Below are positions 14,230 to 53,163 of a DNA stretch of 64,000 nucleotides, one piece after another. The notes under the pieces are model-generated. The model was not told the origin of the DNA, did no database searches, and saw only the letters and a program-made list of their open reading frames with translations. The stretch comes from an uncultured Myxococcota bacterium (lineage in GTDB: Bacteria; Myxococcota_A; UBA796): positions 29,207 to 93,206 of the forward strand of contig CBFIFY010000003.1 of assembly GCA_965661985.1 (NCBI GenBank), given 5' to 3'. The position numbers and the translations under genes are program-made. The first letter of the stretch is position 1, and the number at the start of each line of letters is the position of its first letter.

Positions 14230-14754
14230 ATGAACACAAAACAATTTTCTTGGTTTGCGGCAACCACCCTTTGGCTGATCAACCCTGTGTTTTCAGGCTG
14301 TGACGCCAACAACGACCCTGAGTTTGAATTCGACGAATCGGACATGATTGCCCTACTCGACGATCTCAATGGGCAAGTTTGGGAAACAGAGTTCAACGGG
14401 GAGCCTTCCACCATCATTGTCGCCATTTCACAAGAGATTGAAGAACAAGCCCGTATGTGGAGTATTCTTCAACCAAATACCGCCACTGCCTGTAGCACTC
14501 GGAACTTTGTAGGCAGTGCCGAGGCCTGTATCGACATGAGTACATTGCCGATTGAGGGCACGATCACCATAGAGACTGAAACTGGAGAGATGGAACCTCT
14601 CGTGTATGACGTTTCGGGTAGCATTGACGTCTTTGGAACCACGCTCAACAACGCTGAAGTGTGGCTATCCAACGATGACGTACACGTTTCTTGGAGTGGC
14701 TACACTGAGGAAGATGGACAAGCGTTGGTCTTTGAACTCAATGCTGTTCAATAA
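14230..14754 (+). CDS. hypothetical lipoprotein
   Basis: Signal peptide with lipobox LINPVFSGC, acidic mature protein, no family recognised. Convergent with the 14.8-19.9 kb operon, with stops 6 nt apart. Confidence 0.6.
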   Translation: MNTKQFSWFAATTLWLINPVFSGCDANNDPEFEFDESDMIALLDDLNGQVWETEFNGEPSTIIVAISQEIEEQARMWSILQPNTATACSTRNFVGSAEACIDMSTLPIEGTITIETETGEMEPLVYDVSGSIDVFGTTLNNAEVWLSNDDVHVSWSGYTEEDGQALVFELNAVQ

Positions 14755-14759
14755 TTCCT

Positions 14760-15695
14760 TTAGTCAAATGGAGACGCTGTCCACGCCAACCAGTTTGAAA
14801 AGTCTGCGCACACTTGACCGATTGGTGCTCCATGTGCGTAAGCTTCACCACATCCGTCACAGCGTTCGGGTCTATCGAGTTGGTCTCCATGCCACTCAAC
14901 ATAGATCCATTGACCGTTCACCTGAACATGCTGGGTTCCATTTGGCTCCAATAGACAGTCCACATTGCTAAAGGTTTGCTCACCGAATTCCACTGCTCCG
15001 ATCACCCCATCAGCACCTTGGTCGCTTTGGTCACTTTGAAGGCCACTTTCTTCATTTTCTCGAACCAACTGAACACCATTGTAGAAAATGGCTTTGTACG
15101 TCGGTGCGTTTACAGCCCACATCTCCGCATCTGGAAAGTGCGACGTGGTGCCTGACTCAGTCAGAACATAGGGTCTAGAATAACTGTAAAACACATCGTG
15201 ACCGTTGGAGTCTACACCTGTGAGTTCGTTGATGCCACCCACACAAGACATCTGTGTATCGCCATCGCTCAGTGTCCCTTCACAGTGAATCTGGCGCCCC
15301 ACAAAAAGATTGCCATAGGGATCCGGTTCTGTATCATTTCGAGGAATACTGGTGGCAAAGCCTTCAAAGGACACCCCTTGCTCAGAGATGCAAGAATCTG
15401 CCCAATACAGTCCATCTGGATTGTTGAACCACCTTGGACAATCTGAGTCTGTTTGTGCCAACATCGCATCGTACACATCCAACAATCGACCTACGCGAAC
15501 AGTACGGATCTGCTCAATTCCCAGTTGCAAAATACTTTCAACCTCTTCAATGGACGGCGATTCCACAGCGTCCAACTCGGCAAGGTAAGCCGTATCTTCT
15601 TCAATTTGGTTCAGGTCTTCTTGAGTCACAGTCCGATAGTCACGAACAATTTCGGTTCGACACCCCACCATCAACCACAGCACACTCATACTCAT
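14760..15695 (-). CDS. hypothetical lipoprotein, paralog A of an unrecognised Cys-motif family
   Basis: Lipobox LWLMVGC. Shares DS.CP......G..W...C.S..G.S..G and C-terminal CDGCG-x8-IGQVC.D.S..L.W..SP with ORF 18925-19881. Its start forms an ATGA overlap with the upstream gene. Confidence 0.7.
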   Translation of the reverse strand: MSMSVLWLMVGCRTEIVRDYRTVTQEDLNQIEEDTAYLAELDAVESPSIEEVESILQLGIEQIRTVRVGRLLDVYDAMLAQTDSDCPRWFNNPDGLYWADSCISEQGVSFEGFATSIPRNDTEPDPYGNLFVGRQIHCEGTLSDGDTQMSCVGGINELTGVDSNGHDVFYSYSRPYVLTESGTTSHFPDAEMWAVNAPTYKAIFYNGVQLVRENEESGLQSDQSDQGADGVIGAVEFGEQTFSNVDCLLEPNGTQHVQVNGQWIYVEWHGDQLDRPERCDGCGEAYAHGAPIGQVCADFSNWLAWTASPFD

Positions 15696-16021
15696 CGGAG
15701 CGCCTCACAGTCCAACCAATCCAAGACCAATGCCAGTTGACCTTCTTCCACCCCTCCACTTGGAGGCATGGTTTGCGATTCGACTTCAATGCGTACTTGG
15801 TCGATGTGCAAACGAATATTTTCCAGAGAATCCAACGTTACGTCAACCGGTGCACCTTGTCGATTGGAACTGTAGCCCGCATGACATCCCAAACAGTACT
15901 GTACCATAAATGGCTCTCCCACATTGGCGTAGGACACCGCCGAGCAGTCAAGTTCTGCTGTGTCTCTGATGGAATAAAATTCTTCGGTCACACAGGCCAA
16001 TGCAAACACCCAAAGCATCAT
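15692..16021 (-). CDS. small mono-haem c-type cytochrome-like protein (PSCyt-like)
   Basis: 109 aa with an N-terminal hydrophobic signal and a single CLGCH haem-attachment motif in a context like planctomycete PSCyt domains. ATGA overlaps at both ends. Confidence 0.65.
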   Translation of the reverse strand: MMLWVFALACVTEEFYSIRDTAELDCSAVSYANVGEPFMVQYCLGCHAGYSSNRQGAPVDVTLDSLENIRLHIDQVRIEVESQTMPPSGGVEEGQLALVLDWLDCEALR

Positions 16022-17289
16022 GACAACATCCCCAACAACGGTTCGGCATCCAAAATGTGCTCGCTTGGGTCCAAACCAGCCAACGCAAGCAATCCAGCCC
16101 CCACCGACTCAATACTCAAAATTTGCCCTGCAGATTGTGGTTCTCCAGATTGCAAATCCAATCGAATGCCCTGATAGGACATGTCTACCCCACCCATGAT
16201 GCGATCCGTGGTTAGCCCCTCACCCAACAACATCACCGAGGTAAATGGCCAGTGATCTTTGCCGTTGGTTGAGTTGAGGTTTGCAGTGCGACCCATCTCT
16301 GAACACACGACCACAACCGTGTTCTCAGACAACAACTGTCCTTTTTCATCTCGTCGAACTTGCAACTGGTGCATGAGTTGATTGAGACTGCCAAACAGAC
16401 TTTCAAACAACTGGGATTGGGTTTCATCGTTGTTCGCATGGCTGTCCCACCCCAATCCATCGGAACCAGTGAAGACCACCGATGCACAACGAGAAATCCC
16501 CTTGGCCAACGCATCCACGGCACAAGAGAGTTGATTTGCCAACGAACCTGACGCAAAGGTCATGGTGTGCCGACGATCCTTGAGCATCATCGCGTTGTCT
16601 GTCGCTGTTTTGTAAGCGTCGGTCAAGCGTTGATCCGCACCATAATGAGCCTGCCCACTTCGAGCATGCACACGTTGCTGTATATATCGGTCGAGTACCG
16701 CTTGGCTGGGTGTAGAGATTTCTGGAACCTCGTCGTTGCTGAAATCCAAAATGCTTCGATCCAACACCGATTCCAACTGATTGTTGCTTCCAGTTCGCAC
16801 CACCATTGCCCCTAAGTCACCTGTAAAACTTGGACCATCCAACACCAAGTGGGGAATGGAAAGGTTGCGCTGAGTAGCAGAAGCAATCAACGTTGCCCAA
16901 TCGGGTGCTGTTCCAGATACGCCACCCGTAAACAACAGCGAAGTACAAATCTCGTGGGCGATCGAACGCACTTGCACACCGTTCAAAATCAGTGTTCTGG
17001 CGTGATGGGCATTGAAGAAGGCATCCACCGAAGGTCTATTTGCATGAGACACCCATTCGATGTTGGATGCTTGGGATACGCCTGCCGACGGTTCCATCGC
17101 CACCAATGGGTTGGCGAAGGCGGGCACAAAAACACGGGTGGGGTCCCATCCTCCTTGTGCAAACACAAAAAGAAAGTTCCGTTCTGACTGCGCCGACAGT
17201 GATGCCAATGCATCTGTTCCTGTAAACATTGAAGCACCCGTCACACCCAATAAGCCCAACGTGCCACGCATAAAGTTCCTTCTTTTCAC
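16018..17289 (-). CDS. DUF1501 family protein (sulfatase/alkaline-phosphatase-fold), TAT-exported
   Basis: Twin-arginine signal MKRRNFMRGTLGLLGV. Also QGGWDPT, GWDSHANN and SEMGRT...NGKDHW, as in DUF1501. Confidence 0.8.
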   Translation of the reverse strand: MKRRNFMRGTLGLLGVTGASMFTGTDALASLSAQSERNFLFVFAQGGWDPTRVFVPAFANPLVAMEPSAGVSQASNIEWVSHANRPSVDAFFNAHHARTLILNGVQVRSIAHEICTSLLFTGGVSGTAPDWATLIASATQRNLSIPHLVLDGPSFTGDLGAMVVRTGSNNQLESVLDRSILDFSNDEVPEISTPSQAVLDRYIQQRVHARSGQAHYGADQRLTDAYKTATDNAMMLKDRRHTMTFASGSLANQLSCAVDALAKGISRCASVVFTGSDGLGWDSHANNDETQSQLFESLFGSLNQLMHQLQVRRDEKGQLLSENTVVVVCSEMGRTANLNSTNGKDHWPFTSVMLLGEGLTTDRIMGGVDMSYQGIRLDLQSGEPQSAGQILSIESVGAGLLALAGLDPSEHILDAEPLLGMLS

Positions 17290-17299: not shown

Positions 17300-18934
17300 T
17301 CAGTACAACATGTAATCTGGGTCTCGAAACAGCGCGACCGTTACAACTGTCCACGCCTCGACAGTATCCCCCGTCAACGCATACACTTCTCGCCACAAGT
17401 CAAGACCCGACGACACGGCTGAACCATCCACCGAAACCTCTTTGGACAAAATCAACCGGTGCAAATACTGAAGTTGCTGTTGGGCACGTTCGAGTGTGTC
17501 TTCGTCTTGATCAATCGAGGCATTGAGGTTCACCATCGTAAAGAATCGACGTTCCTCAGAAGGCTGTCTCAGTTCTTGTTGTATTCTGTAGGCACTGGCT
17601 TGCTCTGCCAACAACCCTTGCACCAAGATCATCGTCGCATTCGGGACTTGGGCTTCTTGACCAGCAGCTCGACCGTCTATCCCCCCTGCCAGTGATCTCA
17701 ATCCAACGATATCATTGCCCAACATATCAAAATCGCCATAGGACCATCGAAAACCCGTCAAGTCTTCGATGCTGGAAACCAGTTGGGACACCGACATCAG
17801 TTTGCGGTTTTGAGCATCGCTGCGGTCATTCCATTTTCCTGCACGGTACTCTTCATCTTGAACAATTGAGGCAACCAAAGATTTGAGCCTCAGTCCACTC
17901 TCCAAAAAGGCTTCTCGGTGCGGCAACAATCGAACAGAATCCGCGGCGGTCAAAGGCTGTTGCAATAAGGCAGATGCCACTTGCTCTGTGGCACAATTGG
18001 GAAATCGACTGTCCGAGGCAATCAAAGTCCCCAAATCTGCAAAGCCAGCACTGGGTTGACCAAAATACTCTGGTGCAGTATCCAAATAGGTTTGCCACAA
18101 GCGCTCTCTGTCACTGTGGTAGACAGATGCCTCAAGCCAAGAGTCTACTTGATAGGTCCAAAAACCAAACAGGTGGGCAGCCAAGGGGTCCAAAGTCCGA
18201 TGGCAATTGACACAGGCAGGATCGTTGGAGATGGCATCGAGCATCGCTTCTTCATCCAACAGATTGCTGTCTCGTTCAAAGGAAATCGGTCGACTCAAAT
18301 AATTGTTGCACAGCAAAATTGAACTCACCACATTGGCCCGCATTCGATTGGCGTTGGTGTCCGTAGAGGTAAATCTCCACCATAGAGCATTGCTGCTCAA
18401 CACACCCGCCATCGGACGACCATCAATATAAGGAACGGGTTGCCACCCCTCACCACTTTGAGGATAGTCGACTGGGAAAACACCTCCCAACAGAGAATTC
18501 GCCATCGTATAGTCTGCGGTCACGATGGTGGTCCAAGACAGATCATTTTCAGCGACATAAGACAACAAACGCAAGGGTTCTTCTCCAATCGCACGACGAA
18601 AACCCACTTCGTCATCCAACTGAAAATCTGCCCCTGTCAGATTGTACCGATCGGTCACCGTTCGATAAATGGGCGCATACATTGCCCGAACCCGTACACC
18701 AAAGCCTTGGTGTTCCAAGAATTCATCAATTGTCGGTGCAGGCTCAGTGCCATCAAAGACATCCAACTCTTCAGGGGTTGGTAGAGTACCCCGAATGTCC
18801 AATGAGAGACGACGCAAGTATTGGGCATCGCTCATCCGATCTGTTTCCAGCGTCGTTGTCTGATAGACCACTCGCTCCGTACAGCCGATCCACAAGCCCA
18901 TCCAAAGCGGATACAATGCCAAGTTTATTCCCAT
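17300..18934 (-). CDS. DUF1549/DUF1588-like haem-binding lipoprotein
   Basis: YLRRLSLDIRGTLPTPEELDVF is DUF1549-like. TADYTMANS, TDTNANRMRAN and DPACVNCHRTLDPLAAHLFGFW form the CxxCH..DP motif of DUF1588-type domains. ATG 18934 gives a lipobox signal MGINLALYPLWMGLWIGC; the longer ORF to 19027 would overlap the upstream gene by 100 nt. Confidence 0.7.
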   Translation of the reverse strand: MGINLALYPLWMGLWIGCTERVVYQTTTLETDRMSDAQYLRRLSLDIRGTLPTPEELDVFDGTEPAPTIDEFLEHQGFGVRVRAMYAPIYRTVTDRYNLTGADFQLDDEVGFRRAIGEEPLRLLSYVAENDLSWTTIVTADYTMANSLLGGVFPVDYPQSGEGWQPVPYIDGRPMAGVLSSNALWWRFTSTDTNANRMRANVVSSILLCNNYLSRPISFERDSNLLDEEAMLDAISNDPACVNCHRTLDPLAAHLFGFWTYQVDSWLEASVYHSDRERLWQTYLDTAPEYFGQPSAGFADLGTLIASDSRFPNCATEQVASALLQQPLTAADSVRLLPHREAFLESGLRLKSLVASIVQDEEYRAGKWNDRSDAQNRKLMSVSQLVSSIEDLTGFRWSYGDFDMLGNDIVGLRSLAGGIDGRAAGQEAQVPNATMILVQGLLAEQASAYRIQQELRQPSEERRFFTMVNLNASIDQDEDTLERAQQQLQYLHRLILSKEVSVDGSAVSSGLDLWREVYALTGDTVEAWTVVTVALFRDPDYMLY

Positions 18935-19881
18935 GGAGAGTCTCCCCAGTCCAGCAGTGGTGAAATGTCCACACAGACTTGACCAATGACGTCTCCGTTG
19001 AAAGATGCCACACCACAACCATCGCACTCACCGGTCAATTGCCAATCCGACGACACGTCAAATTCAATATCCACCCAGCGTCCGTGCGCATCGCGTACTG
19101 CCAAAGTTCCGGAGGGTTCTGCTGGACATGGATACCCAATTTGGCTGGCATAGGTCACCGTGTCTCCAAACTCGATGGCGGTCACTGACCCTGACCCCGA
19201 CCCCGACTCTAACCCTGACCCTGACCATGCCATCCGACCACTGACCAGAAAGGCGTTGATGGGTAACACCTCCGAAAAAGAAGCCCCATACATCATCAGC
19301 GTGTGTGACTGCCCCTCTTGAAGCCATGGTTCTACAGCACCATCATCCATAAATGAACCTGTTACGCTCGAAAAGAACACTGGATATCCATCGACTGAAA
19401 TTCCGTCGGCCAAATAGGCTGAACCACCCCAGTGAATGAGTCTGCCGTCCCCATCGATCATTTGGGTAGAACCAGAGAGCAACTCAACGTTCCACGCTCC
19501 TCCATCACCAAAGAAATCATATTCTTCATAGGTGTTGTAGAACAAGTATCCATCGTAAGACATTCCTGTGGTCGAAGTGCACGCCCCATACCAAAACGAG
19601 TTTCCATCAACGGTGTAGGCTTGAGGACAGTAGGAATCGGCTTGAGCCATCACCATCGAGTATTGAGACAGTATTGGCGTTGTGTGACGGGTACGAAGGG
19701 TGGAAAAAATCTCATCCAAGGCCACCTCAATGCCTGTTAAGTCCCATTCTTCAGGTTCTTGAGTCACATCATCCGGCGGAATATATTCACTGGGTTCACT
19801 GGATTCGTTCATTCGCTCAGTGTCTGGTGCAGTTCCGGTGATCACCTCCGTCCTTTGACAGGCAAACAATAACCAAAACAT
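18925..19881 (-). CDS. hypothetical lipoprotein, paralog B of an unrecognised Cys-motif family
   Basis: Lipobox MFWLLFAC. Shares internal and C-terminal Cys motifs with ORF 14760-15695. Contains a SGSGLESGSGSGS linker encoded by a hexanucleotide repeat. Confidence 0.7.
   Translation of the reverse strand: MFWLLFACQRTEVITGTAPDTERMNESSEPSEYIPPDDVTQEPEEWDLTGIEVALDEIFSTLRTRHTTPILSQYSMVMAQADSYCPQAYTVDGNSFWYGACTSTTGMSYDGYLFYNTYEEYDFFGDGGAWNVELLSGSTQMIDGDGRLIHWGGSAYLADGISVDGYPVFFSSVTGSFMDDGAVEPWLQEGQSHTLMMYGASFSEVLPINAFLVSGRMAWSGSGLESGSGSGSVTAIEFGDTVTYASQIGYPCPAEPSGTLAVRDAHGRWVDIEFDVSSDWQLTGECDGCGVASFNGDVIGQVCVDISPLLDWGDSPWE
19186..19226. repeat. imperfect hexanucleotide microsatellite (TGACCC/CGACCC) inside CDS
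   Basis: The tgaccctgaccccgaccccgactctaaccctgaccctgacc stretch encodes the (Gly-Ser)n linker SGSGLESGSGSGS on the minus strand. Confidence 0.85.
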
Positions 19882-19976
19882 ACGTCCGTCCCCACTCGTT
19901 GATATCTTAACTCACTGTATGTTCAGTATATATGAATTGGCACCGTTCGCAAACTGAGCCATGCTTTTCGATTGCT

Positions 19977-20627
19977 CTACTGTGACGTACCCACAATTTG
20001 CTTCTGTACAGAAAACGCCCCGCGCACTTGACCAAGTTGGTATCCACGCGCCAAATCATCGGGGTAATGTTGCAGCAATGCTGTCTCTGTATCGGGACTC
20101 AAGGCTTCACCATGACACGACAAGCACAGTCCTTGTACCGGTTGTGCCTTCATGAATCGATAGGTCCCGTCTACCACCTCTGCTTTAACCATGGCTGATG
20201 CATCGACGCCGGCTTCGACTTGTGCATCGAACCATTCTAAGGTTTCACGCTCCCAGTCATCTGGGGTGCCGTTCGTTGAATTGCGGGTTTTGAGACTGAC
20301 GCGTTTGACGGACCATCCGGATTCCGTAGAAATGGATTGAGCAATCTGCGGCGCTTGCTGTGAACACACTTCGATGGCTTTCACAGTTCCACCAGACTGC
20401 ATCGCCGATTTCAGTTGTGGCTTTAGGGTACCACCAAACTGCTTTACCAACGCGACGGCTTCAAGTTCGAAGGCATCCAAGTCTGGTTCTGCAACGTTTT
20501 TTTCTACGTCTATCTCTGTTGGTTCTGACTCTGTCACAACAGAAGGAGTCGACTGTTCGACTCCAACCATTGCTGTTTGTGCAGTGGGTGTCGTAGATTT
20601 GACACAGGCCAACCATATCCACAGCAT
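19977..20627 (-). CDS. DUF3365 domain haem-binding lipoprotein
   Basis: Lipobox IWLAC. Also GGTVKAIEVCSQQAPQIA, GWSVKRVSLKTRN, YRFMKAQPVQGLCLSCHG and QLGQVRGAFSV, the pattern of DUF3365 c-type haem proteins. Confidence 0.75.
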   Translation of the reverse strand: MLWIWLACVKSTTPTAQTAMVGVEQSTPSVVTESEPTEIDVEKNVAEPDLDAFELEAVALVKQFGGTLKPQLKSAMQSGGTVKAIEVCSQQAPQIAQSISTESGWSVKRVSLKTRNSTNGTPDDWERETLEWFDAQVEAGVDASAMVKAEVVDGTYRFMKAQPVQGLCLSCHGEALSPDTETALLQHYPDDLARGYQLGQVRGAFSVQKQIVGTSQ

Positions 20628-20637
20628 AGGACGCTCC

Positions 20638-21495
20638 TTATTCTCCGAGTACAGGTAAACACATCATGCGAATACCGTTGTCCATCTTTGGTGGCAGCGC
20701 GCCTGCTCGAATGTTCAATTGAACACTTTGAAAGATCAACCTTGGAAGATTCAGTTTGGCATCCCGTTCTGTACGGAATTTCAAAAACTCTTCTTTGGGC
20801 GTGTCTACTTTGAGTTGCTTGTTGCCAGTTTTGCATTCGGCAATGGTGGTTTCAAAAGCCAACTCACGACCCCCGGGCTGATAATCATGCCCGACAAAGA
20901 CACGGGTTTCGTCTGGAAGTGTGTACAATTTTTGGATGGACTCATAGAGAGTCTCTGCTGAGCCTTTTGGAAAGTCACAACGTCCAGTACCGAAATCAGG
21001 CATAAACAAGGTATCTCCAGCAAAGATGGCGTCCCCAATTTGATAGGTTGTGCAAGCAGGTGTGTGCCCAGGCGTATGAATCGCCTTAATGTTTAGTGAA
21101 CCAGACTCCAAGACGTCGTTGTCATCCATCAACACATCAAAAATCTCAGCATTGATTTCGTTGCCGTCTAGGTTCAACAGTTCAACAAATGTTTCCTGAA
21201 TGGTCGGAAGCAATGAGCCCACAACCAATCTTGCGCCCAATTTCTCTCGCAGTCGTGATGCACCTGTAATGTGATCTGCATGAATGTGGGTTTCCAAAAT
21301 GTGCTGTACCTTTAAACCCTTTTCTGAAATGAAAGTCAACAGTTCTGTGATGGAATCTTCTGTAAATTTCAAGTTCACTGAGTCAAAGTCCAAAACTGGA
21401 TCGATGATGACAGCGTCGGATGTATCTGCATCCCACACGATATAACTTAAGGTTGAAGTGGACGTATCGAAAAAGTGTTGAATATTGAGATTCAT
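20638..21495 (-). CDS. MBL-fold metallo-hydrolase, persulfide dioxygenase (ETHE1/Blh)-like
   Basis: THIHADHITG (HxHxDH), HTPGHTP, GDTLF and VFVGHDY. The second ATG (MNLNIQ) was chosen because GGAGG lies 5 nt upstream of it. Adjacent to the ArsR-rhodanese regulator. Confidence 0.75.
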   Translation of the reverse strand: MNLNIQHFFDTSTSTLSYIVWDADTSDAVIIDPVLDFDSVNLKFTEDSITELLTFISEKGLKVQHILETHIHADHITGASRLREKLGARLVVGSLLPTIQETFVELLNLDGNEINAEIFDVLMDDNDVLESGSLNIKAIHTPGHTPACTTYQIGDAIFAGDTLFMPDFGTGRCDFPKGSAETLYESIQKLYTLPDETRVFVGHDYQPGGRELAFETTIAECKTGNKQLKVDTPKEEFLKFRTERDAKLNLPRLIFQSVQLNIRAGALPPKMDNGIRMMCLPVLGE

Positions 21496-21571
21496 GATGG
21501 CCTCCAAATCTCATGGGTGATTCTGTGCATACAGAAGTGAAAAAATTAAAACAGATACAAAAGAGTGTTCC

Positions 21572-22222
21572 TTACAAAGTGCGACATAATTTTCCACCTT
21601 GAACACACCACTCTCCAACACCGTCATCATACCGGGACACGTCAAAACCTTTTGATGTCAACAGTTCTGCCGCCTCATCAGACGACACGCAATACGGTCC
21701 TCGACAGGTCACGATGACTGGCTTGCTCGAGGTAAGTTCTGTAAATCGCGTGGACAAGTCTTCCAGTGGAATGTTGATTGCACCATCCATGTGGGCATTG
21801 AGGAACTCTTCATGGGTGCGGACGTCCAACAACGTTGCTCTCTGTTCAAGCAAGACGTGTTGAACATGTTCAAAAGAAACAGAAGGAAGAGTGCGATACT
21901 GGTGAAGTACTTGTAAATCTGGATTGATGGATTCAGCCAAACTGCGCAAAGCAACAAAGACTTCCAATGTTCCTTCCGCCAAACTATAAATGATGCTGGT
22001 CCCCTGTCGTTCGGTCACAACCGTTTTACTGCGTTTCAACACTTGCAAATGTTGAGATGTACTGGCAATCGATTGCCCGATCCGTTTGGCGATATCATCG
22101 ACAGAACGTGGACGCTGAATCAAGGCATCAATGATTTCAAGCCGTCTGGCACTGGCAAAAACCTTGCCAACATCGGCAAAACCAGTATAGCGCGCATTTT
22201 TGAGTTCTCGATTGGATGTCAT
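21572..22222 (-). CDS. ArsR/SmtB-family HTH regulator fused to a rhodanese domain
   Basis: The N-terminal winged HTH reads FASARRLEIIDALIQRPRSVDDIAKRIGQSIASTSQHLQVLK. The C-terminal rhodanese domain reads LLDVRTHEEF...VIVTCRGPYCVSS with an active-site Cys loop. ATG 22222 was chosen over TTG 22231. Confidence 0.85.
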   Translation of the reverse strand: MTSNRELKNARYTGFADVGKVFASARRLEIIDALIQRPRSVDDIAKRIGQSIASTSQHLQVLKRSKTVVTERQGTSIIYSLAEGTLEVFVALRSLAESINPDLQVLHQYRTLPSVSFEHVQHVLLEQRATLLDVRTHEEFLNAHMDGAINIPLEDLSTRFTELTSSKPVIVTCRGPYCVSSDEAAELLTSKGFDVSRYDDGVGEWCVQGGKLCRTL

Positions 22223-22315
22223 ATGGATCAACCTAGTAAAGCATTCTATATATTTATTGAATAGTATCGAAATGAAGCATTGTCAACACAAACAGGCAAT
22301 TATTTTTGGTAAAAC

Positions 22316-23665
22316 CTAACTTTTCAACAGTTCTGTCAGACGCTCTTGAAGCAATGGCAATTGATCTTTCGCCACCGTACGCATGTCCAGCCACAAAGTA
22401 CCCTGTTGAATTCTTCCCATGATGGCTGGATTGCCTGTGCGCAAATCCTTCGCCAGCCGTTCCACTTGGGGATCTTGCAATACAACAGCCCACGTATCCA
22501 GTCGACGGTCCGGCAAAGCACCGCCTCCAACCAGTGAGTGACTGCGCTCAACTTTTAACGATGGATGTACAGAAGCCACTTGTTCTGCATACTTTTTACA
22601 TTCTGCATCCGTTCTCTGTAAAAACGCCCACACGGGCAATTCATTGCTTCGCCCCTCAATGTGCATTTGCAATGTTGCTTCCAAGCCAGCCAATAGCATC
22701 TTGTCCAACCTCAATGCACGGTATAAAGGGTGTCGGCGACACTGTTCAATCCACTGTCTTCGACCCACAATCAAGCCTGCTTGCACTCCACCCAGCAGTT
22801 TGTCTCCACTGGCACACACCACATCCACACCCTCTGCGATTGCCCGTTCTATAGATTCTTCTCGCTCTAGCTCTTCCTTCCACGGTACGTTGGGAGCCAT
22901 TTTCAGCAAGCCAGATCCCAAATCTTCAACCACCGGTACTTGATGTCGTTGCGCCAACTGGCAAACGTCAGAACGGGATGGTTTGCTCGTAAACCCCACC
23001 ACGCGATAGTTTGACGTGTGAACGCGCAAAATGGCACCCGTTTGCTCCGTTAACACACCTTCAATGTCTTTGAGGTGCAGTCGATTGGTACATCCAACCT
23101 CTCTCAGTATTGCCCCACCCTGTTGGATGACATCAGGCACTCGAAAACTGCCACCAATCTCGACCAATTCGCCACGTGACACCACCACTTCCTTCTTTGC
23201 TGAGATTGCCGACAGTATCAACAATACTGCGGCGGCATTGTTGTTGACCACCAAAGCGTCTTCAGCCCCGGTCATTTGACAAAGTTTGTTGCGAATACCC
23301 GCCAATCGCCCACCGCGTTTGCCATCTTCCAGCCGCAACTCCAAATCTGTATACCCAGAAATCTCCTGCATGTAATCGAACACTTCTTGAGGTAGAGGCG
23401 CGCGACCAAGGTTGGTGTGGACAACGATTCCCGTTGCGTTGATGACCGAACGATAACGCTTTTGCGACCGTTTCTGTCGTTCGTCATGCACTTGTCGATT
23501 CCACTCTTCCATTGACCAACGTGCACTCAGTTGTTGATGCTGAATCTGATTCCGTACACGGTCCAACAAAGACTCAATAATCGACTTGGCCCAATTGTGC
23601 TCTACGTCTTGCAGTGCTCGAAGTGCCAAAAGCTGGTTCACATTGGGAATATCACTGTACTTCAT
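22316..23665 (-). CDS. selA: L-seryl-tRNA(Sec) selenium transferase
   Basis: VINATGIVVHTNLGRAPL, VVSRGELVEIGGSFRVPDV, VHTSNYRVVGFT and SGDKLLGGVQAG are collinear with E. coli SelA over the whole 449 aa. Confidence 0.92.
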   Translation of the reverse strand: MKYSDIPNVNQLLALRALQDVEHNWAKSIIESLLDRVRNQIQHQQLSARWSMEEWNRQVHDERQKRSQKRYRSVINATGIVVHTNLGRAPLPQEVFDYMQEISGYTDLELRLEDGKRGGRLAGIRNKLCQMTGAEDALVVNNNAAAVLLILSAISAKKEVVVSRGELVEIGGSFRVPDVIQQGGAILREVGCTNRLHLKDIEGVLTEQTGAILRVHTSNYRVVGFTSKPSRSDVCQLAQRHQVPVVEDLGSGLLKMAPNVPWKEELEREESIERAIAEGVDVVCASGDKLLGGVQAGLIVGRRQWIEQCRRHPLYRALRLDKMLLAGLEATLQMHIEGRSNELPVWAFLQRTDAECKKYAEQVASVHPSLKVERSHSLVGGGALPDRRLDTWAVVLQDPQVERLAKDLRTGNPAIMGRIQQGTLWLDMRTVAKDQLPLLQERLTELLKS

Positions 23666-24399: not shown

Positions 24400-25284
24400 A
24401 TGATACCATTTCTTGTACTCTTGGCCTGCACAGAGAACACAACCGATACCTTTGCCAACATGGCCACAGAAGACAACGCCGACACAAACAGTGAAAACAG
24501 CGATGACACTGAATCTGGAGAGGAGATACCTGAACTCAATGCAACCCAGCAGTTTCGAGTGCCACAGAGACCTTGGGATCTGGCTGAAGGTCCAGATGGA
24601 ACCATCTATTGCTCTGCACAAGGGGGGAACAAAGTCTACTTGTGGAACCCTGTTTTGGAAGAGCGAAGCGAGTATCCCCACAGCGTACCCGATGTACAAA
24701 ACCTCTATGTTGACGATGACAGCACCTTGTACTTTACCCGTACTGAATATGGCGTCACCGGCAATCTTTCTCGAATGAACGGCTCTTTGAACGAATCTCG
24801 GGCAGAAGTCTTGTACAGTCAAGCAGACGATGGATTTATCATGCGCTGGCCAATGGACTTTGTGCGTCTGCCCAACGATGATGGCTGGGTGATCGCCGAC
24901 TTTGGATCAGGAGTACTCTTTGTCGTTCATGAACAAGTTGATCAGGCTGAGCAAAGTATTGTCACCACTCGCTCTGCAGGCTCCGCCAAACCTCAAGGTC
25001 TGTTGTTTGTAGACGACGTGCTCTATGTCTCTGGCGAAGACGGCATATACAGCATTGAATGGCCAAATGGAGAACCGGAACTGATCGATGAACGCGTTGG
25101 TTTGGCGTTGCTCAATGTGGATGGATCTCTTTGGTCCTCCAATGCTAATTTGGGTGTTTTTGAAGTTGCTGAAGATTCCGTTGGCCTCAATCAAGCGGCG
25201 AGACCAGGAAGTCTCCTTCAAACTTCAGATGGGATTTATTTTGCCGATCATGTAGGTGAAGGGGTATGGTTATACCAGCCATAA
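24400..25284 (+). CDS. hypothetical lipoprotein with beta-propeller-like repeats
   Basis: Lipobox LVLLAC and an acidic linker. Five or six repeats of the type DG.iY......g.v (GPDGTIYCSAQ, DDSTLYFTRT, DDGWVIADF, VDDVLYVSGEDGIYSI, TSDGIYFADH), as in NHL/SMP-30-type blades. Confidence 0.6.
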   Translation: MIPFLVLLACTENTTDTFANMATEDNADTNSENSDDTESGEEIPELNATQQFRVPQRPWDLAEGPDGTIYCSAQGGNKVYLWNPVLEERSEYPHSVPDVQNLYVDDDSTLYFTRTEYGVTGNLSRMNGSLNESRAEVLYSQADDGFIMRWPMDFVRLPNDDGWVIADFGSGVLFVVHEQVDQAEQSIVTTRSAGSAKPQGLLFVDDVLYVSGEDGIYSIEWPNGEPELIDERVGLALLNVDGSLWSSNANLGVFEVAEDSVGLNQAARPGSLLQTSDGIYFADHVGEGVWLYQP

Positions 25285-37933: not shown

Positions 37934-38986
37934 TCAATGATCACAGCACTGATCATCCTGTTTGTGAGAATGACGCTGTTGATTCAATGACTTGTCCGCT
38001 GGATTCAAGATCTCTACAGTACAATGTGCCAACGCAACGGACTGACACAACGATTTTTTGTACTCAAGTGGAGACTGTGGGTCTTGCGCAAGAATAGACA
38101 CCACACAGCAGTGTCTGTCCAGTCCCATATCCCACAGATGTAGGTCAACGATTTCCACACCCTCGATGTGTGCGAAATGGTGACGAACCTTCTCCTCCAA
38201 CTCTCGATTTGGGAGTGCACTGAGAAGTACCCAACCAGTATCTTTGATAAGTTGAACCGACCATCGAACAATGATGATTCCCCCGACAACACCCATCAGT
38301 GGGTCCAATACCCACCAACCGAATTGCTGACCCAAAAACAAAGCAACGATGGCCAAAACAGATGTCAACGCATCGGCAACCACGTGTAGATAAGCCCCTC
38401 TCAGATTGTGGTCGTGACCAGCCTGCTCCACATCACCCTGCCCGTGACTGTGACCATGCCCGTGGCTGTGACCATGACCGTGATGCCCTGCCGAATCATC
38501 CTGACTGAGCAACCAAGCAGACAGTAAATTTACCACCAAACCAATGATCGCTACCCACATCGCCGTACCAAATTCGACCGATTCAGGCTCCAACATGTGG
38601 TGTACCGACTCTACGGCAACGAGCACACCTGCCACAAACAACGCAATAGCAGAAGCAAATCCTGTTAAAGCAAAGACTTTTCCAGTACCAAATGAAAAGC
38701 GGGGATCAGAATCATACTTTCGTGCAAAGGCATAGCCCAACAACGTGAGTCCCAATGCGCCAGCGTGAGAGGCCATATGCCACCCGTCAGCCGTCAGTGC
38801 CATAGACTTGGTCCACCACCCAACCAAAAGTTCGGCGACCATCGTCACCAGTGTCAACCACACCACCCAACGGGTTCGTGTCTCATTCCCCTCTAGGATT
38901 GGGGTGTCGTGTTGATGGCGCACTTGCAATATCTCAGGATTCGACTCCCGCTGAGAGTTGCCGTGAAAGTGGTGGTCATGGGGCAT
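37934..38986 (-). CDS. cation diffusion facilitator (CDF) divalent-metal exporter with His-rich loop
   Basis: Six TM segments, SMALTADGWHMASH, HVVADALTS and a cytoplasmic loop GHHGHGHSHGHGHSHGQGD. Its start overlaps the upstream gene stop by 11 nt. Confidence 0.88.
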   Translation of the reverse strand: MPHDHHFHGNSQRESNPEILQVRHQHDTPILEGNETRTRWVVWLTLVTMVAELLVGWWTKSMALTADGWHMASHAGALGLTLLGYAFARKYDSDPRFSFGTGKVFALTGFASAIALFVAGVLVAVESVHHMLEPESVEFGTAMWVAIIGLVVNLLSAWLLSQDDSAGHHGHGHSHGHGHSHGQGDVEQAGHDHNLRGAYLHVVADALTSVLAIVALFLGQQFGWWVLDPLMGVVGGIIIVRWSVQLIKDTGWVLLSALPNRELEEKVRHHFAHIEGVEIVDLHLWDMGLDRHCCVVSILAQDPQSPLEYKKSLCQSVALAHCTVEILNPADKSLNQQRHSHKQDDQCCDH

Positions 38987-40911: not shown

Positions 40912-43335
40912 ATGTTGTTTGGCTTTCTACTCTTTGCATCCTGCCCAAAACCCACTTGGTCAGAGCCCTATACACCTGTAATTTCGACACCGTCTTGGAC
41001 CGCCCATTTTACCAAACAAGGGTCCATTGACGTACCGGAAGCCGCACTGCAAAATCAACAGAGATTAACCATTTCAAATACAAAGGACGCCAAATCTTTT
41101 TCATGGCTTCCAACACACGAAGACATTTGGACCAGCAACAAGCCCCCATTTATTAATTCGATGCTCGCTGAAAAACAGTATGCAACTTGGAGCGATGATT
41201 CCGTACGGCTACTGCTAAGACACAATTGTTCAGACAACGACCTGCTTCACTGGAAATCTACGAGCAGTGAAGGGTCTATTCTCGCCACAGAATTCACAAT
41301 CTTAACAATTTCTCGGGCGCCGTACTCCAAATCTATTCCGATCCAATGGTCCTGTGGTACATCACAACAGACCACACACACCAAAATATCACTCGACAAC
41401 AGCCTACCCCTACCACATATTCAGTGGCGATGGCTCAATGCTCAAACCCTTCGGGTCATCAGCCTAGATGCAACTGAAAGTACGCTGTCCATTCTTCATG
41501 GAAACACCAACGTTGGCTGGACCGTTGGAGACACGGCTTTTATTGCCCATCCGTTAAGCGTATGGGATGTGGATACCCAAAGCATTCCAAGCACGCACCT
41601 AAAGTTCGAACTGAGCGCCAAACAAACAGTTTTATACACTTCCACACCCATTTCAATGCTCAATCCAGCGCTGTCTGTCACTCGGTCGAATGACCAAACC
41701 TATCTCATTGACACTCCGACTGACTCAACCCACATTGTCTACAGTCGTTTGATTGGACAGGCTACATCGGAAATGCCCAACCTCCATCCTGTCCTGACCC
41801 AGAAACCAATATCGGATGATCGACTGTTCAAAGGACTCTATTGGTTGAGTGTGCAAGATCCAAGCCGACAGAGTCATACGGTTGAACCCTTGTGGATGTA
41901 CGACGGAACTTGGCAATGGTACTCAAATACACAGTGGACCACCACCACCACCCCACAAAGCGAAGCGATACGTTCATCCAAACCACCCTATGTACGGTGG
42001 GGCGATGCCCTACTGGTTTCCGAACGTCATCTGGATACATCTCATCTTGTAGAGCGCACACGGTGGATCGTTGGAGACCCACTTCAACAGAATCTCATAA
42101 TTAGCCCTGAAGATGGTCTGTTCTACAATCATGACGTTCTATCTGTTCTTCAACAGCAACGCTCCGAAAAGCTGACAGCCCCTGCCGATGAGTCCATTCC
42201 TTTTCTTTTCCGAACGGACTCTCAAGCATCGGAGGAACGGCTCTTAACACTTCTTCCTTTGCTAAAAGCAGACTCTTTGTTGTCCACTGCCACACTGCTT
42301 CATCACGGCAGTCTATTGTGGGACGCTCTACACACTCGAAATCTCAGTTGGTATAATGGAGTGTTGCATGCTGTTCAAAAAGGACTGCGACAGTTGGAAC
42401 AAGTGTCTGAAGATCGGTGGGAGGCATTGGATTTTGAAGTGCAACTGTACATCCTATGGACCACGCTGATCGCCGACCAAGAAGGGCTTTCCCCCAACTC
42501 AACCTCAATGCGCCGTCAACTCTCTTGGTTGTGTGGCCTATCGGACACCGACATTGAACTGGATCGAGCACTCATTTCTCACGTTCGATGGATGGTCACC
42601 CAATCTTATTGGAAACACCGTTCCTGTACTGGCACCGCACAATCGTTGTCAGAACACGCGTTTACTGCCGACACTGTAAGCAACATCGATGATGAATTAC
42701 AGTCCGCTCTTAAAGAACATCGCACATACACATTGAAACCCGATGCTCCACTGTGGCAACAGTTTCTGTTGTTTGAAAGAGAAAAAGAACTCCGTGATCG
42801 CTATGTCAATCTACACCTTTCTTTGGAGAACAACAGTGAAAGTACACGGGGGCTGTTTCATGAGTGGCAAATCAGACCTGTACAAGCCACGTTGAAAGAC
42901 AGTGAATCACAATTTCACGTTTCAGGGGTGGGCAGACTCTATTCATCGACTTGGCAACCTTGGATTCAAACGCTGTCTGCTCAATCAGGAGACACCATAA
43001 ACGTCGTCCGCACAATTGTAGACAAATACAACACACCCATCCACCCCTTTGAACTTCAAGTTGGAATGCCCATTCAGCTCCACACCACCGTTCAAGGGTT
43101 GCCATCCACCCCCTTTTGCATTCGTCAATGGGGCAGTGCAGGCTTGGCCAACCAACCACAAGAACATCACAGTTGCCACACCCTTGATGAACAAGGATAC
43201 TGGTCGACCATTGAGTCCACCCATGTTGTCTACGATGGTCAATACAGACTTCCAGCCACTTGGGTCGCCACTGAGACCGACATTGCACACACAGCGACAA
43301 CGTGGTTGCGAACCAAACGCTTGACGTATCCTTAG
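40912..43335 (+). CDS. large hypothetical lipoprotein (807 aa)
   Basis: Lipobox FLLFASC and an uninterrupted 807-codon ORF. I recognise no family or catalytic motif. Confidence 0.6.
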   Translation: MLFGFLLFASCPKPTWSEPYTPVISTPSWTAHFTKQGSIDVPEAALQNQQRLTISNTKDAKSFSWLPTHEDIWTSNKPPFINSMLAEKQYATWSDDSVRLLLRHNCSDNDLLHWKSTSSEGSILATEFTILTISRAPYSKSIPIQWSCGTSQQTTHTKISLDNSLPLPHIQWRWLNAQTLRVISLDATESTLSILHGNTNVGWTVGDTAFIAHPLSVWDVDTQSIPSTHLKFELSAKQTVLYTSTPISMLNPALSVTRSNDQTYLIDTPTDSTHIVYSRLIGQATSEMPNLHPVLTQKPISDDRLFKGLYWLSVQDPSRQSHTVEPLWMYDGTWQWYSNTQWTTTTTPQSEAIRSSKPPYVRWGDALLVSERHLDTSHLVERTRWIVGDPLQQNLIISPEDGLFYNHDVLSVLQQQRSEKLTAPADESIPFLFRTDSQASEERLLTLLPLLKADSLLSTATLLHHGSLLWDALHTRNLSWYNGVLHAVQKGLRQLEQVSEDRWEALDFEVQLYILWTTLIADQEGLSPNSTSMRRQLSWLCGLSDTDIELDRALISHVRWMVTQSYWKHRSCTGTAQSLSEHAFTADTVSNIDDELQSALKEHRTYTLKPDAPLWQQFLLFEREKELRDRYVNLHLSLENNSESTRGLFHEWQIRPVQATLKDSESQFHVSGVGRLYSSTWQPWIQTLSAQSGDTINVVRTIVDKYNTPIHPFELQVGMPIQLHTTVQGLPSTPFCIRQWGSAGLANQPQEHHSCHTLDEQGYWSTIESTHVVYDGQYRLPATWVATETDIAHTATTWLRTKRLTYP

Positions 43336-43412: not shown

Positions 43413-44141
43413 ATGGATCGCCCACACAATGTGCCAAAATTACTCATCAAACTCATGCACCAGCAAAATCAGCTCTGCCCACTCACGACCGACGTTGTTC
43501 GAGTCGGCCGAAGTGAAGAGTGCGAAGTCATCTTGCCCAACGCTTCTGTGTCTCGCATTCACGCCACCATCACCAAAGAAGGTGACCGCTTCGTCATCCG
43601 AGACAACGATTCTCAAAACGGTTTTCGCATCAACGGCGAGGCATCCAAAGAACACACATTGAGTTCCGGTGATGAAATCCACTTGGGGGTATTCTCACTG
43701 GTCTTTTTAAGTGATCGATTGGAAGACAACTATTACCGTGGTCGTTCGGTCACCTATTTGCCCATCTACAATCCAAAAATCATTGAAAGCAGTGATGACT
43801 CAACCTTCGCCATGTCCACGCGGGACAAAAACTTGTTGGCTCGCAAGTCCAGTCTGCTCTATCACGGATGCATCATGAGCAAGGATGGGCGCTACTTCTA
43901 TCCCGAAGAAAATCCGCTGACCTTTGGAAAGAATGCCGTCATTTCCATCGATCACTGGTGGGTATTTGGTGTGGTCGCAGAGATCGTATGGGCCGACAAA
44001 GCTCACGTCATCAACAAACTGTCTTGGTTCTGCCCCGTCAAAGTCAACGGCAACAACGTCGATCGTGCTTTGTTGAAAGCGGGAGACAAAATTCAAATTG
44101 GCAACAATCATTTTGGGTATACCATACGCCAAGATTACTAA
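43413..44141 (+). CDS. FHA domain-containing protein
   Basis: ATG 43413 has GGAGA 7 nt upstream. VVRVGRSEECEVILPNASVSRIHATITKEGDRFVIRDNDSQNGFRINGE is a canonical FHA core. The C-terminal VKVNGNNVDRALLKAGDKIQIGNNHFGY suggests a second, degenerate FHA-like module. Confidence 0.8.
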   Translation: MDRPHNVPKLLIKLMHQQNQLCPLTTDVVRVGRSEECEVILPNASVSRIHATITKEGDRFVIRDNDSQNGFRINGEASKEHTLSSGDEIHLGVFSLVFLSDRLEDNYYRGRSVTYLPIYNPKIIESSDDSTFAMSTRDKNLLARKSSLLYHGCIMSKDGRYFYPEENPLTFGKNAVISIDHWWVFGVVAEIVWADKAHVINKLSWFCPVKVNGNNVDRALLKAGDKIQIGNNHFGYTIRQDY

Positions 44142-44202
44142 AAGTTGATTTGCGGTGCTGTCTTCTTTGGCTTCCCTTGTCTAGAAACGCTCGGATACTA
44201 GA

Positions 44203-44588
44203 GTATACCTCGCGTTTATATCCTTCGGGCATCCTTTGAATCCATCATCCACTCTCAACTTTGAAAATACGAAATTGTTGTGGGTTGCTGGGTGACTTGG
44301 GTGTTTGTTAGGCTGTTGGAAGTTGACTGGCGTTGAGGGTGACTTTGATGTTTGCGAGTGTGTCGGTATTTGGTTGGATATAGCAGTTTGTGTTTGTATA
44401 CCTCGCGTTTATATCCTTCGGGTATCCTTTGAATCCATCATCCACTCTCATCATTGAAACTACGAGATTGTTGTGGTGTGCTGGGTGACTTGGGTGCTTG
44501 TTTGTATCGGGGCTTGGGTCGAGGCAGGCGTTTTTGGTGACTTGGTTGTTGTCTAGTGTGTTGGCAGAGGGGTAGATGTAGCAGTTTG
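44203..44588 (+). repeat. two tandem ~193-bp non-coding repeat units (44203-44395, 44396-44588)
   Basis: The first ~106 nt of each unit differ at 8 positions by my count. The distal ~87 nt are more diverged but still alignable. Lies in the convergent intergenic region between the FHA and Rpn genes. Confidence 0.85.
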
Positions 44589-44791
44589 TTGTATCGATTG
44601 TTTGTCAATCAAAAGCATTGTAGAAGGCTATCAGGTTTATTGGATGGGCTTTGGTATCCAAGTGAAGTGTACAATCGTACACGAATCTGGAGAACGAAGG
44701 TCAGTCGATGAAACGGATAGCCCTTCGGCTGTGAGATTGGTATACACAGGATGGTCTCTCAATGGTTTGGAGAGGTCGGCGAGGTGTCTAT

Positions 44792-45835
44792 TTATTTTTG
44801 AACGGGGGCGGATCGAAGTTTGCCGACTTCATCTACACTCAAGCCTGTTGCTTGTGCGGTTTGTTCGTCAGAGAGTCCCATTTTGATGAGATTTTGCGCA
44901 GTTTTGATGTTGGCTTGTATCGTGCCTTCTTCTCTTCCTCTTTCGATACCCTGCTGGATACCTTCTTCTTGCCACTGTTTGATTAAATCGATCATGTTGT
45001 TCTCCGTTCTTAATTTATTGTCTAGCATTTTTGAAATGGGTTCGTTTCCTTTGTAGGTTTGGATGATGTAGAGATACATCGAGAGTAGGGTATCTCCGGA
45101 TTCTTGTCTCAACAGTATGAACTGTTCGTCAACCAGCAATCGGTCATAGAAGGACGAATGTCTGGAATATTTGAAATACTCGGCAAACTTGGCTAGCAGA
45201 AACGACTGTTGGTACTGTCTTTGAATCTCGGCATCATCGGTTTGTGAGAGGTCTCGCAAGTGGAAAGACAGTTGGGGAGAATATTGGGAACATCCCACAG
45301 GCACGTTAATCAAAGCCTGTAGGGACGTTGGGGATTTCCAAGCTTCGATGCCATTGAAGAGCACCAATGGAAACACAAAGGGCAGTTTGTCGGGAAATTT
45401 TCCGTTGTGGATGGTTTTGATGTAGTTTGAATACCATAAGTATAGATACTCGTAGAACCTCCATGCCATCGAGTGAACATCTGTCGATTGATGCTCGAAC
45501 ATAAAGTAGACATACATTTTCTCTGAGGATTTGAGTTTCAGTGACAGAAGAATGTCGGCGCGTTTCTCGTTGACCATTGGAGAGCCGAGATTGGTGGGTT
45601 CGTAGGTCAGAGAGTCCCATTTGATATTTTCGACCAGTGCTTGGGGTATTTCAGCCTGTAGATAGGCGGTGATGACCTTGGGCTTCTCCATCATGTACTT
45701 GAAAATCACATCGTGAGAGGTTTTGCCTTTGGACATTTCATCGAGAAACATTTTGTGTAGGCGTTCAAAGGTGCGTTTTTGCTCTTGTAGTCGTTTGGTC
45801 TTGTCTGGTCCTAAATTGTCTGATTCATCGCTCAT
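44792..45835 (-). CDS. Rpn-family recombination-promoting nuclease / putative transposase (PD-(D/E)XK, YhgA-like)
   Basis: The N-terminal block HDVIFKYMM...RADILLSLKL...VYFMFEHQS fits the D...E.Q nuclease core pattern. The C-terminal EEGIQQGIERGREEGTIQANIKTAQNLIKMGLSDEQTAQATGLSVDEV repeat is typical of this family. Confidence 0.8.
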   Translation of the reverse strand: MSDESDNLGPDKTKRLQEQKRTFERLHKMFLDEMSKGKTSHDVIFKYMMEKPKVITAYLQAEIPQALVENIKWDSLTYEPTNLGSPMVNEKRADILLSLKLKSSEKMYVYFMFEHQSTDVHSMAWRFYEYLYLWYSNYIKTIHNGKFPDKLPFVFPLVLFNGIEAWKSPTSLQALINVPVGCSQYSPQLSFHLRDLSQTDDAEIQRQYQQSFLLAKFAEYFKYSRHSSFYDRLLVDEQFILLRQESGDTLLSMYLYIIQTYKGNEPISKMLDNKLRTENNMIDLIKQWQEEGIQQGIERGREEGTIQANIKTAQNLIKMGLSDEQTAQATGLSVDEVGKLRSAPVQK

Positions 45836-46190
45836 GATTGCTCCATTGTGTGTTGTGAGCGAGTATGAGCAAAAAGTGTGCCAATGATAGGGTGTCGGTA
45901 GGTTCGATACTGTACGATGTTAGTTGAAAAGTTAGTCAATTGTTGGTCAATGCTTCGTCAGTAGATGGGCTACATCGTCGATAGAATCGAAAATGGATTG
46001 GTCAATTTGACTGACCAAATTGGTGAATTTTCGTCAGTTTGTTTGGTTGTGTGTAAAATACCTCAATCATTTCAAGTATTTGTGTATTTCAAAAATTGAC
46101 GAAAACACCAAGTATTGAATATTCGTCGGTTTTGGCATAGGAAAGATAAAAGATCTATCAAACATTCATCCAACGACGGAGAACAGCATC

Positions 46191-47657: not shown

Positions 47658-47802
47658 GTATTTTGTATATCTACGACATTTGGGGTTTGATTTGGTTTGT
47701 GCTTTTATGAGATTCTACATTTGCTCGACTAAAGTAATGTGAGTCGATTTAGAGAGTACTGGAACTTCAAATCAAAAAAATGTACTTCTGTACTCAAATT
47801 CA

Positions 47803-47884
47803 GTATAGGTCTCTTTCATATCATCCACTCTCATCATTGAAACTACGAGGTTGTTGGATGTTGCTGGGTGACTTGGGTGTGTTC
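47803..47884 (+). repeat. third, truncated copy of the 44.2-kb repeat core
   Basis: ATCATCCACTCTCATCATTGAAACTACGAG.TTGTTG......TGCTGGGTGACTTGGGTG is shared with 44444-44500. Same orientation, again in a convergent intergenic region. Confidence 0.8.
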
Positions 47885-47904
47885 AAGTGTATCTAGGACT
47901 GGTG

Positions 47905-50678: not shown

Positions 50679-50698
50679 ATCAATTCTCAGTCGGAGGG

Positions 50699-53014: not shown

Positions 53015-53163
53015 GTTTGTACCTTGGAAAAATGATCGTAACTCACAATTAGTATAACGTATGTCACATTGCTTTGTGGACAGGATCGACCATTTGAGAC
53101 AAATGTTGAATCCCACAATCAATAGTCTATGTAGAAGGCTATTTTTCAGTTGTCGCGTCTACG

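Follow-up and report, generated by a model that had tools for sequence, protein, structure and literature searches.

A Pair of Paralogous Lipoproteins from an Unnamed Family in a DUF1501/Cytochrome c Gene Cassette of an Uncultured Myxococcota Bacterium

Genes of the locus

The stretch of DNA analyzed here (the window, 64,000 nucleotides) belongs to an uncultured Myxococcota bacterium (GTDB lineage Bacteria; Myxococcota_A; UBA796; assembly GCA_965661985.1, contig CBFIFY010000003.1, positions 29,207 to 93,206 of the forward strand) and carries two paralogous lipoprotein genes, designated A and B, at the two ends of a tightly packed five-gene cassette. The cassette lies on the minus strand in the order B, PSD-like cytochrome, DUF1501 protein, small cytochrome, A. 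Paralog B, the upstream-type family member, is encoded at 18925..19881 (318 aa), and paralog A, the downstream-type member, at 14760..15695 (311 aa); both open reading frames (ORFs) were confirmed. The two proteins align end to end (BLASTP E=1e-24, 26% identity, 42% positives), and each has a lipobox Cys plus six further Cys. The original prediction, made from the letters alone, of two lipoprotein-like paralogs of ~310 aa is thus borne out. The motifs it had proposed as common to both were also located in A and B, namely DS.CP...W...C.S..G.S[FY].G[FY] in the first third, which needs a one-residue indel between the two proteins, and CDGCG...G..C.D...W..SP at the C-terminus.

The lipobox of A is MVGC (Cys12) and that of B is LFAC (Cys8), each after an N-terminal hydrophobic segment as is usual for lipoproteins. 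The N-terminus of B, MFWLLFA|C, places seven residues before the Cys, none of them K or R, and so lacks the positively charged n-region and the usual length (about 15-25 aa). In the same frame a TGA stands 11 codons before the B start, with no ATG, GTG or TTG in between; since there is no alternative start before the ATG at 19881, the signal peptide of B has only seven uncharged residues. Because it is this short and uncharged, export and lipidation of B are only inferred from the sequence. The lipobox Cys column is filled in 170 of 187 family sequences, the exceptions being mostly truncated or misaligned, and the pattern [LVI][ASTVI][GAS]C is found in 146 of 179 family sequences that start with Met. 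Family members of other contigs have the lipobox Cys mostly at positions 7-16. Ultra-short uncharged signal peptides (7-11 residues before the lipobox Cys) occur in many putative lipoproteins of the window (18925-19881, 19977-20627, 15692-16021, 14760-15695, 24400-25284, 40912-43335, 46191-47657, 57294-59090 and 60607-61473), at least eight of which, besides B, have the B-like form. Examples are MFWLLFAC, MLWIWLAC, MMWWIWAC, MIAFLLMAC and MIPFLVLLAC, with ORF starts bounded by upstream stop codons. Such signal peptides are unusual for Sec/Lsp substrates and may be a trait of the lineage.

The three genes between B and A encode two putative monoheme cytochromes c and a DUF1501 protein. The gene next to B (17300..18934, minus strand) encodes a PSCyt2/PSCyt3/PSD2-like monoheme c-type cytochrome lipoprotein with the heme motif CVNCH. 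Its start is likely Met32 of the maximal ORF 17300-19027, which would provide the lipobox WIGC and make the gene overlap the end of B by 10 nt. The protein scores 32.6 bits against PSCyt2 (cut-off 29.8) and falls below the cut-offs of PSCyt3 and PSD2. The DUF1501 protein (16018..17289, minus strand, 423 aa) was recognized with Pfam (E=2.5e-15, 57 bits, cut-off 27) and carries the twin-arginine (TAT) signal KRRNFMRG. The small monoheme cytochrome c lipoprotein (15692..16021, minus strand, 109 aa) has the lipobox ALAC, the heme motif CLGCH and an MPP Met ligand motif, and its gene overlaps both neighbors, DUF1501 and A, by 4 nt. In the 95-nt gap upstream of B, a consensus match to a sigma-70-like promoter, TTGCGA-16-TATACT (19925..19952, minus strand), is a possible start of the cassette transcript.

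Upstream of B, at 19977-23665 (minus strand), lie genes for a Tll0287-like c-heme PAS-type lipoprotein, a metallo-beta-lactamase-fold protein, an ArsR-type helix-turn-helix fused to a rhodanese, and SelA; this cluster looks like a unit for persulfide or sulfur-stress sensing and detoxification. These four genes were considered as parts of the cassette and rejected: they are neighbors only in the closely related loci L001-L003 and L012 (see below), and are not beside the cassette in L008, L009, L014 or a 28-kb JGI contig.

An unnamed protein family

A and B are members of an unnamed family of extracytoplasmic lipoproteins. A search of 1.84 billion representative sequences with a 28-sequence hidden Markov model (HMM) profile recovered 896 clusters (50% identity) at E<=1e-3, 550 at <=1e-10 and 228 at <=1e-30. 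Word-index homolog searches far under-report the family, with 20-31 matches against the 896 clusters of the full HMM search. Nearly all clusters have lengths of 290-345 aa and are matched end to end. The G+C content of the fetched loci extends from 45% to 74%, a spread which indicates that the family is old and diverse. The relatives come from JGI records and from metagenome-assembled genomes labeled Myxococcota bacterium, under the sole name "hypothetical protein"; an older record bears the label "uncultured proteobacterium".

No named relative was detected. Neither A nor B has a match in Pfam-A or NCBIfam at E<=1, and among 50 diverse members there was none in Pfam at E<=0.01 and a single stray match in NCBIfam (E=0.008). 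Sequence searches of the PDB with a single protein and with a 50-sequence profile gave nothing meaningful for the family, and those with the DUF1501 protein, the PSD-like protein and the small cytochrome gave nothing. A literature search for the CDGCG motif returned irrelevant matches only. In an hhalign comparison the family profile was unrelated to the 174-aa lipoprotein encoded by the convergent gene at 14230-14754. With Foldseek also negative (see below), the earlier statement that the proteins could not be assigned to a named family holds.

Cysteines and predicted structure

Conservation was counted in 187 family sequences, including A and B, and Cys residues are numbered throughout as in paralog B. 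C85, C101, C252, C286, C289 and C303 are each conserved in 181-186 of the 187, and all seven Cys are kept in 164, the exceptions being mostly fragments. The near-invariant positions are C85-P86, W97, C101, G111, C252, E255, W269, C286-D287-G288-C289, C303 and D305. The motif reads CDGCG or CDGCA in 175 of 185 database family sequences, A and B (both CDGCG) standing outside that count. Two full-length proteins, P0152 (CDGVASAY…GEIAVD) and P0179 (CDGKGRMY…GEISLD), have both C289 and C303 replaced and keep C286 and C252. An extra pair, C137/C151, is present in an all-or-none fashion (both in 23 sequences, neither in 164); it lies on neighboring strands and is carried by A and its clade. The joint loss of C289 and C303 and the all-or-none occurrence of 137/151 point to pairing as disulfides in exported proteins, and from this co-variation we infer three hairpin-stapling disulfides, 85-101, 252-286 and 289-303.

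The original prediction had left it open whether CDGCG...C marks a metal or a disulfide site. The disulfide alternative is the one favored by the co-variation, while a Cys4 metal site is unlikely; a zinc-ribbon or rubredoxin-like site would use four Cys as one unit, and P0152 and P0179 split them, losing C289/C303 jointly and keeping C252/C286. Two further candidates were rejected. A heme c site at CDGCG has no His after the CxxC, and the sole CxxCH in any family protein belongs to the cytochrome domain of a natural fusion (P0067, see below). A thioredoxin-like oxidoreductase would have its CxxC at a helix N-terminus, whereas CDGCG opens a beta-strand in an all-beta region in both predicted models; no thioredoxin-family Pfam matches were found.

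The AlphaFold2 models of B (pLDDT 85, pTM 0.79, 22-sequence alignment) and A (pLDDT 91.6, pTM 0.81, 106 sequences) agree in architecture. Both have a tether, two helices (about 48-80) and an uninterrupted antiparallel meander of 12-15 strands (about 12 in B). The tether is a low-confidence segment of ~40 aa after the lipid-anchor Cys with a conserved P-x-x-Y; that of B is acidic and Pro-rich and reads PSEY at this motif. Foldseek found no significant match in the PDB for either model (best E 0.04-0.05, TM <=0.2), and for the A model none below E=0.04 in BFVD. The weak matches are large beta-barrels for B and ORD lipid-transfer barrels for A. No match to LolA/LolB/LppX-type or ORD-type carriers or to outer-membrane beta-barrels reached E<=1e-3 or TM>=0.5. 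As modeled, the family fold has no solved analogue in the PDB.

The Gly-Ser loop

Paralog B contains the stretch SGSGLESGSGSGS, encoded by an imperfect hexanucleotide repeat (coding strand TCAGGG/TCGGGG) at 19185..19226 on the minus strand. Tandem Repeats Finder (TRF) reported a period of 6, 7.0 copies, 83% matches and a score of 56. The stretch was first read as a Gly-Ser linker, which does not hold: it does not separate domains but forms a loop at the surface (residues about 219-232) that connects strand 209-218 to strand 233-244. Residues 221-230 have a pLDDT of about 54, the least confident part of the folded domain, and coincide with the most gapped region of the family alignment. The suggestion that the repeat may vary in length was correct, as close relatives differ. 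The window allele is TGG (TCAGGG)2 TTAGAG (TCGGGG)2 TCAGGG TCAGTG; that of locus L012, whose protein is 97% identical, is TGG (TCAGGG)2 TCAGGT GCAGTG and 18 nt shorter; and that of L001 (82% identity) is without the repeat and 30 nt shorter.

As a surface loop the Gly-Ser stretch is tolerant, and slippage of the hexamers lets its length drift. The repeat might instead be a contingency element, through which slippage adaptively tunes or switches B, given the polymorphism in steps of 6 nt between the window and L012, the repeat-free L001, and the lack of any other hexanucleotide array in the 64 kb at a TRF score of >=50. This is very improbable. Phase variation works by a shift of frame or of promoter spacing, whereas the 18- and 30-nt differences are in frame; because the 6-nt unit keeps the frame, slippage alters the loop length and cannot switch the gene off. 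The imperfection of the repeat lowers slippage rates, the loop is hypervariable and of low pLDDT throughout a family in which most members are repeat-free, and the comparison rests on three alleles.

Gene neighborhood in other loci

Related loci (numbered with the prefix L) were fetched by exact-protein look-ups and pattern scans and annotated with HMMs built from the cassette proteins; an alignment-based scan of genome contigs gave two loci only. A family member is directly followed by a PSD-like gene and then a DUF1501 gene in every locus with enough flank (the window, L001/6, L002/3, L007, L008, L009, L012-L018, L020, L022/23 and the JGI 28-kb contig). In most cassettes the genes for a small monoheme cytochrome c lipoprotein and a second family member come next. 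The full five-gene form is present in the window, L002/3, L007, L008, L014 and the JGI 28-kb contig. The order differs in L004/5 (member, cytochrome, member, PSD-like, DUF1501), and the contig of L019 ends within the PSD-like gene. In all loci with gene calls the PSD-like gene begins within the last 4-13 nt of the member gene. All PSD-like proteins checked have exactly one CxxCH; the small cytochromes have CxxCH and MPP, and the DUF1501 proteins have RR signals. The original prediction had asked whether homologs neighbor DUF1501 and heme genes, and the link is strict in every locus examined.

In L011 a protein of 434 aa (P0067, 674-1978), encoded directly after DUF1501, has one lipobox, at the N-terminus, then a small-cytochrome domain (CQSCH, MPP) and after it a family domain in full length. 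It represents a natural fusion of genes that stand side by side in other loci. In a rough, unbootstrapped neighbor-joining tree the downstream copies, including the fused one, group together, which suggests an old duplication with fixed positions.

Comparison with known DUF1501/PSCyt modules

Modules of DUF1501 and PSCyt proteins are conserved, exported and of unknown function (PMC3542564, PMC5615132). They are known from Planctomycetes, Verrucomicrobia and Lentisphaerae (here PVC), where PF07394 occurs with PF07635, PF07583, PF07587, PF07627 or PF07624; PSCyt/PSD stands for "Planctomycete-specific cytochrome c". In Planctomycetes and Verrucomicrobia few gene pairs without a known function have expanded as much, and the chemistry of this one is unknown (PMC3542564, PMC5615132). 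The window cassette has the composition described for such modules (PMC3542564), and the pattern repeats in all loci. As in the PVC modules, a DUF1501 gene with a TAT signal stands beside a gene for an exported PSCyt/PSD protein with CxxCH; some PVC modules comprise more genes, adding exported beta-rich proteins and a separate PSCyt1-type cytochrome. Unlike its PVC counterparts, the PSD-like protein of the cassette is a short lipoprotein (about 545-585 aa where gene calls exist) with only weak scores, which are spread over PSCyt2, PSD4, PSCyt3 and PSD2. The small cytochrome, a lipoprotein of its own, stays below the PSCyt1 threshold (E=0.13), two paralogs of a Pfam-absent family flank the cassette, and the labeled hosts are Myxococcota, not PVC.

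PSCyt proteins frequently carry fused beta domains that bind carbohydrate or protein (PMC3542564, PMC5615132), such as Laminin_G_3, F5_F8_type_C, Big_2 and WD40; examples are the PSCyt1/WD40 proteins of Verrucomicrobium spinosum clusters. The family shares with these domains the attachment of a beta-rich, non-catalytic module to a PSCyt-type cytochrome, and P0067 follows the same logic. It differs in having no sequence or detectable fold relationship to them, and its members are usually separate lipoproteins, predicted to be stapled by disulfides.

The window holds a second module, which encodes on the minus strand a PSD1/PSCyt3/PSD4 protein (50699-53122), a TAT DUF1501 protein (49410-50678) and a DUF4215 Cys-rich lipoprotein of 508 aa whose gene overlaps that of DUF1501 (47905-49431). 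Like the cassette, it has the two core gene families in the same order followed by an overlapping gene for a Cys-rich lipoprotein. Unlike the cassette, it has no small cytochrome and no family member by hmmsearch, and hhalign gave a probability of 0.5% for the family profile against the DUF4215 lipoprotein. Its DUF1501 protein belongs to a different subfamily (E=1e-34 with the cassette HMM, vs 1e-224). A class-2 lipase lipoprotein (53164-54210) adjoins this module.

Other features of the window

A lipoprotein encoded at 46191-47657 (plus strand) carries an FGE-sulfatase domain in its C-terminal part and, toward the N-terminus, an array of DCDGVLSVDDCDDGDASTVDDM-type repeats. These repeats, visible in the DNA as a 66/141-nt tandem repeat (46527-46895, TRF score up to 537), resemble MopE-type Cys/Asp metal-binding motifs, which are also found beside the cassette on the JGI 28-kb contig. 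At about 44000-48000 the GC skew turns from negative to positive, with the cumulative minimum near 44 kb, and the local G+C content dips to 0.42-0.44; this change could be a replication landmark or a foreign segment. An 18-nt tandem repeat at 38435-38483 (2.7 copies, TRF score 77) lies inside the ORF 37934-38986 (minus strand), which begins MPHDHHFHG.

Proposed role and alternatives

As their relatives always stand in the same operon in the loci examined, A and B are most likely dedicated partner subunits. Synteny, overlapping genes, the fusion and the shared export signals argue for one membrane-anchored extracytoplasmic assembly, which would consist of four lipoproteins and one TAT substrate. 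Anchored by lipid, each paralog would have a flexible acidic tether, a pair of helices and a long antiparallel beta-meander stapled by three disulfides, and would serve as a non-catalytic partner of a membrane-anchored cytochrome c/DUF1501 module. B, translationally coupled to the PSCyt/PSD-like monoheme cytochrome, would work with it and form with it and the TAT-exported DUF1501 protein an invariant core, while A would work with the small monoheme cytochrome as an add-on pair. The likely task of A and B would be docking and positioning: they would keep the heme proteins and the DUF1501 enzyme assembled at the membrane, and they may also present substrate. On the precedent of the published beta domains fused to PSCyt cytochromes, they are proposed as detached equivalents of the beta-rich binding domains of Planctomycetes and Verrucomicrobia. 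The invariant residues W97, E255, W269, D287 and D305, beside the predicted disulfides, would form an interaction or ligand site. A and B are put forward with moderate confidence as dedicated accessory subunits whose disulfides are structural; confidence in any specific ligand is much lower.

Several observations weigh against this proposal. The cassettes of L016, L020 and L022/23 end after DUF1501, followed by a convergent gene and no downstream copy, and in L018, which has a small cytochrome, a second copy was not detected; the A-type role is thus dispensable. The second DUF1501 and PSD pair of the window (49410-53122) is without a family member, so the family is not a general partner of DUF1501 but belongs to one DUF1501 subtype only. 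P0067 is the sole fusion among the 187 sequences. The loci, about 19 of them independent, were found with family-derived patterns and carry only four taxon labels. Moreover, the strict invariance of CDGCG, including its D and G, exceeds the needs of a simple structural disulfide and could mark a chemically active site.

One alternative is that CDGCG...C together with C252 is a functional redox or metal center working with the neighboring c-type cytochromes, be it a redox-active dithiol at the CxxC, a Cu/Zn/Fe site with Cys ligands or a cation site assisted by Asp/Glu. The CxxC with its invariant D and G is kept by 182-183 of 187 sequences, the invariant E255, D287 and D305 are close by, two monoheme cytochromes share the operon, and P0067 sets the family domain beside a heme. 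Even so, this reading is unlikely: P0152 (CDGV...A) and P0179 (CDGK...S) divide the four Cys into two pairs, as fits neither a Cys4 site nor a C286-C289 redox pair; A and B are predicted to be exported lipoproteins, in which paired Cys are normally oxidized; and the CxxC, with no His after it, lies at the start of a beta-strand, unlike in thioredoxin-like folds. Both the metal-site reading and the linker reading of B are probably wrong.

Two other alternatives involve a barrel. In one, the meander is a barrel that does not close fully, the two N-terminal helices cap its hydrophobic cavity, and the proteins are carriers or binders of a lipid or other hydrophobic or glycan ligand, feeding substrate to DUF1501 instead of docking the cytochromes. 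The best, non-significant Foldseek matches of A are the ORD barrels Osh6, ORP8 and OSBP (E 0.04-0.25, TM about 0.2) and those of B are large beta-barrels; ligand pockets typically contain residues like the invariant Trp, Tyr, Asp and Glu of the family, and PSCyt proteins elsewhere bear carbohydrate-binding modules. As all structural matches are below significance, with a root-mean-square deviation above 12 A, and LolA, LppX and lipocalins are absent among the Foldseek matches, such a carrier is rather improbable. In the other, A and B are beta-barrels embedded in the outer membrane, lipidated porin-like partners through which the module reaches the cell surface. This would agree with the modeled meander, whose 12-15 antiparallel strands are long, with the aromatic residue that both proteins have close to the C-terminus (B, SPW-E; A, SPF-D) and with weak matches of B to the outer-membrane barrels chitoporin, EspP, DcaP and OccK. 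That residue, however, is not the last of the chain, outer-membrane barrels do not typically have six conserved Cys or a helical subdomain at the N-terminus, and the barrel matches of B (E >=0.05, TM <=0.2) were not reproduced by A. A porin-like partner is very improbable.

The proposal of docking subunits may also be carried further. The five proteins might constitute a previously undescribed lipid-anchored extracytoplasmic redox enzyme of Myxococcota, with A and B as substrate-recognition and assembly subunits, each pairing with one monoheme cytochrome that wires the DUF1501 catalytic subunit. This extension is speculative and its correctness doubtful.

Significance

A and B represent a new accessory family in a new variant of the known, uncharacterized DUF1501/PSCyt module. 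With its ~900 sequence clusters, the family joins those that merit a name. Since it consists of hypothetical proteins with a putative functional role, the immediate surprise for a specialist is moderate. The cassette is a compact version of the module, in which the domains are split into small separate lipoproteins and two dedicated accessory proteins are included. It offers a defined five-gene set, a fusion that hints at one subunit contact, and conserved residues to mutate. If the redox-enzyme reading were true, this compact and separable cassette could be a tractable entry point to the hundreds of DUF1501/PSCyt modules of the PVC bacteria.

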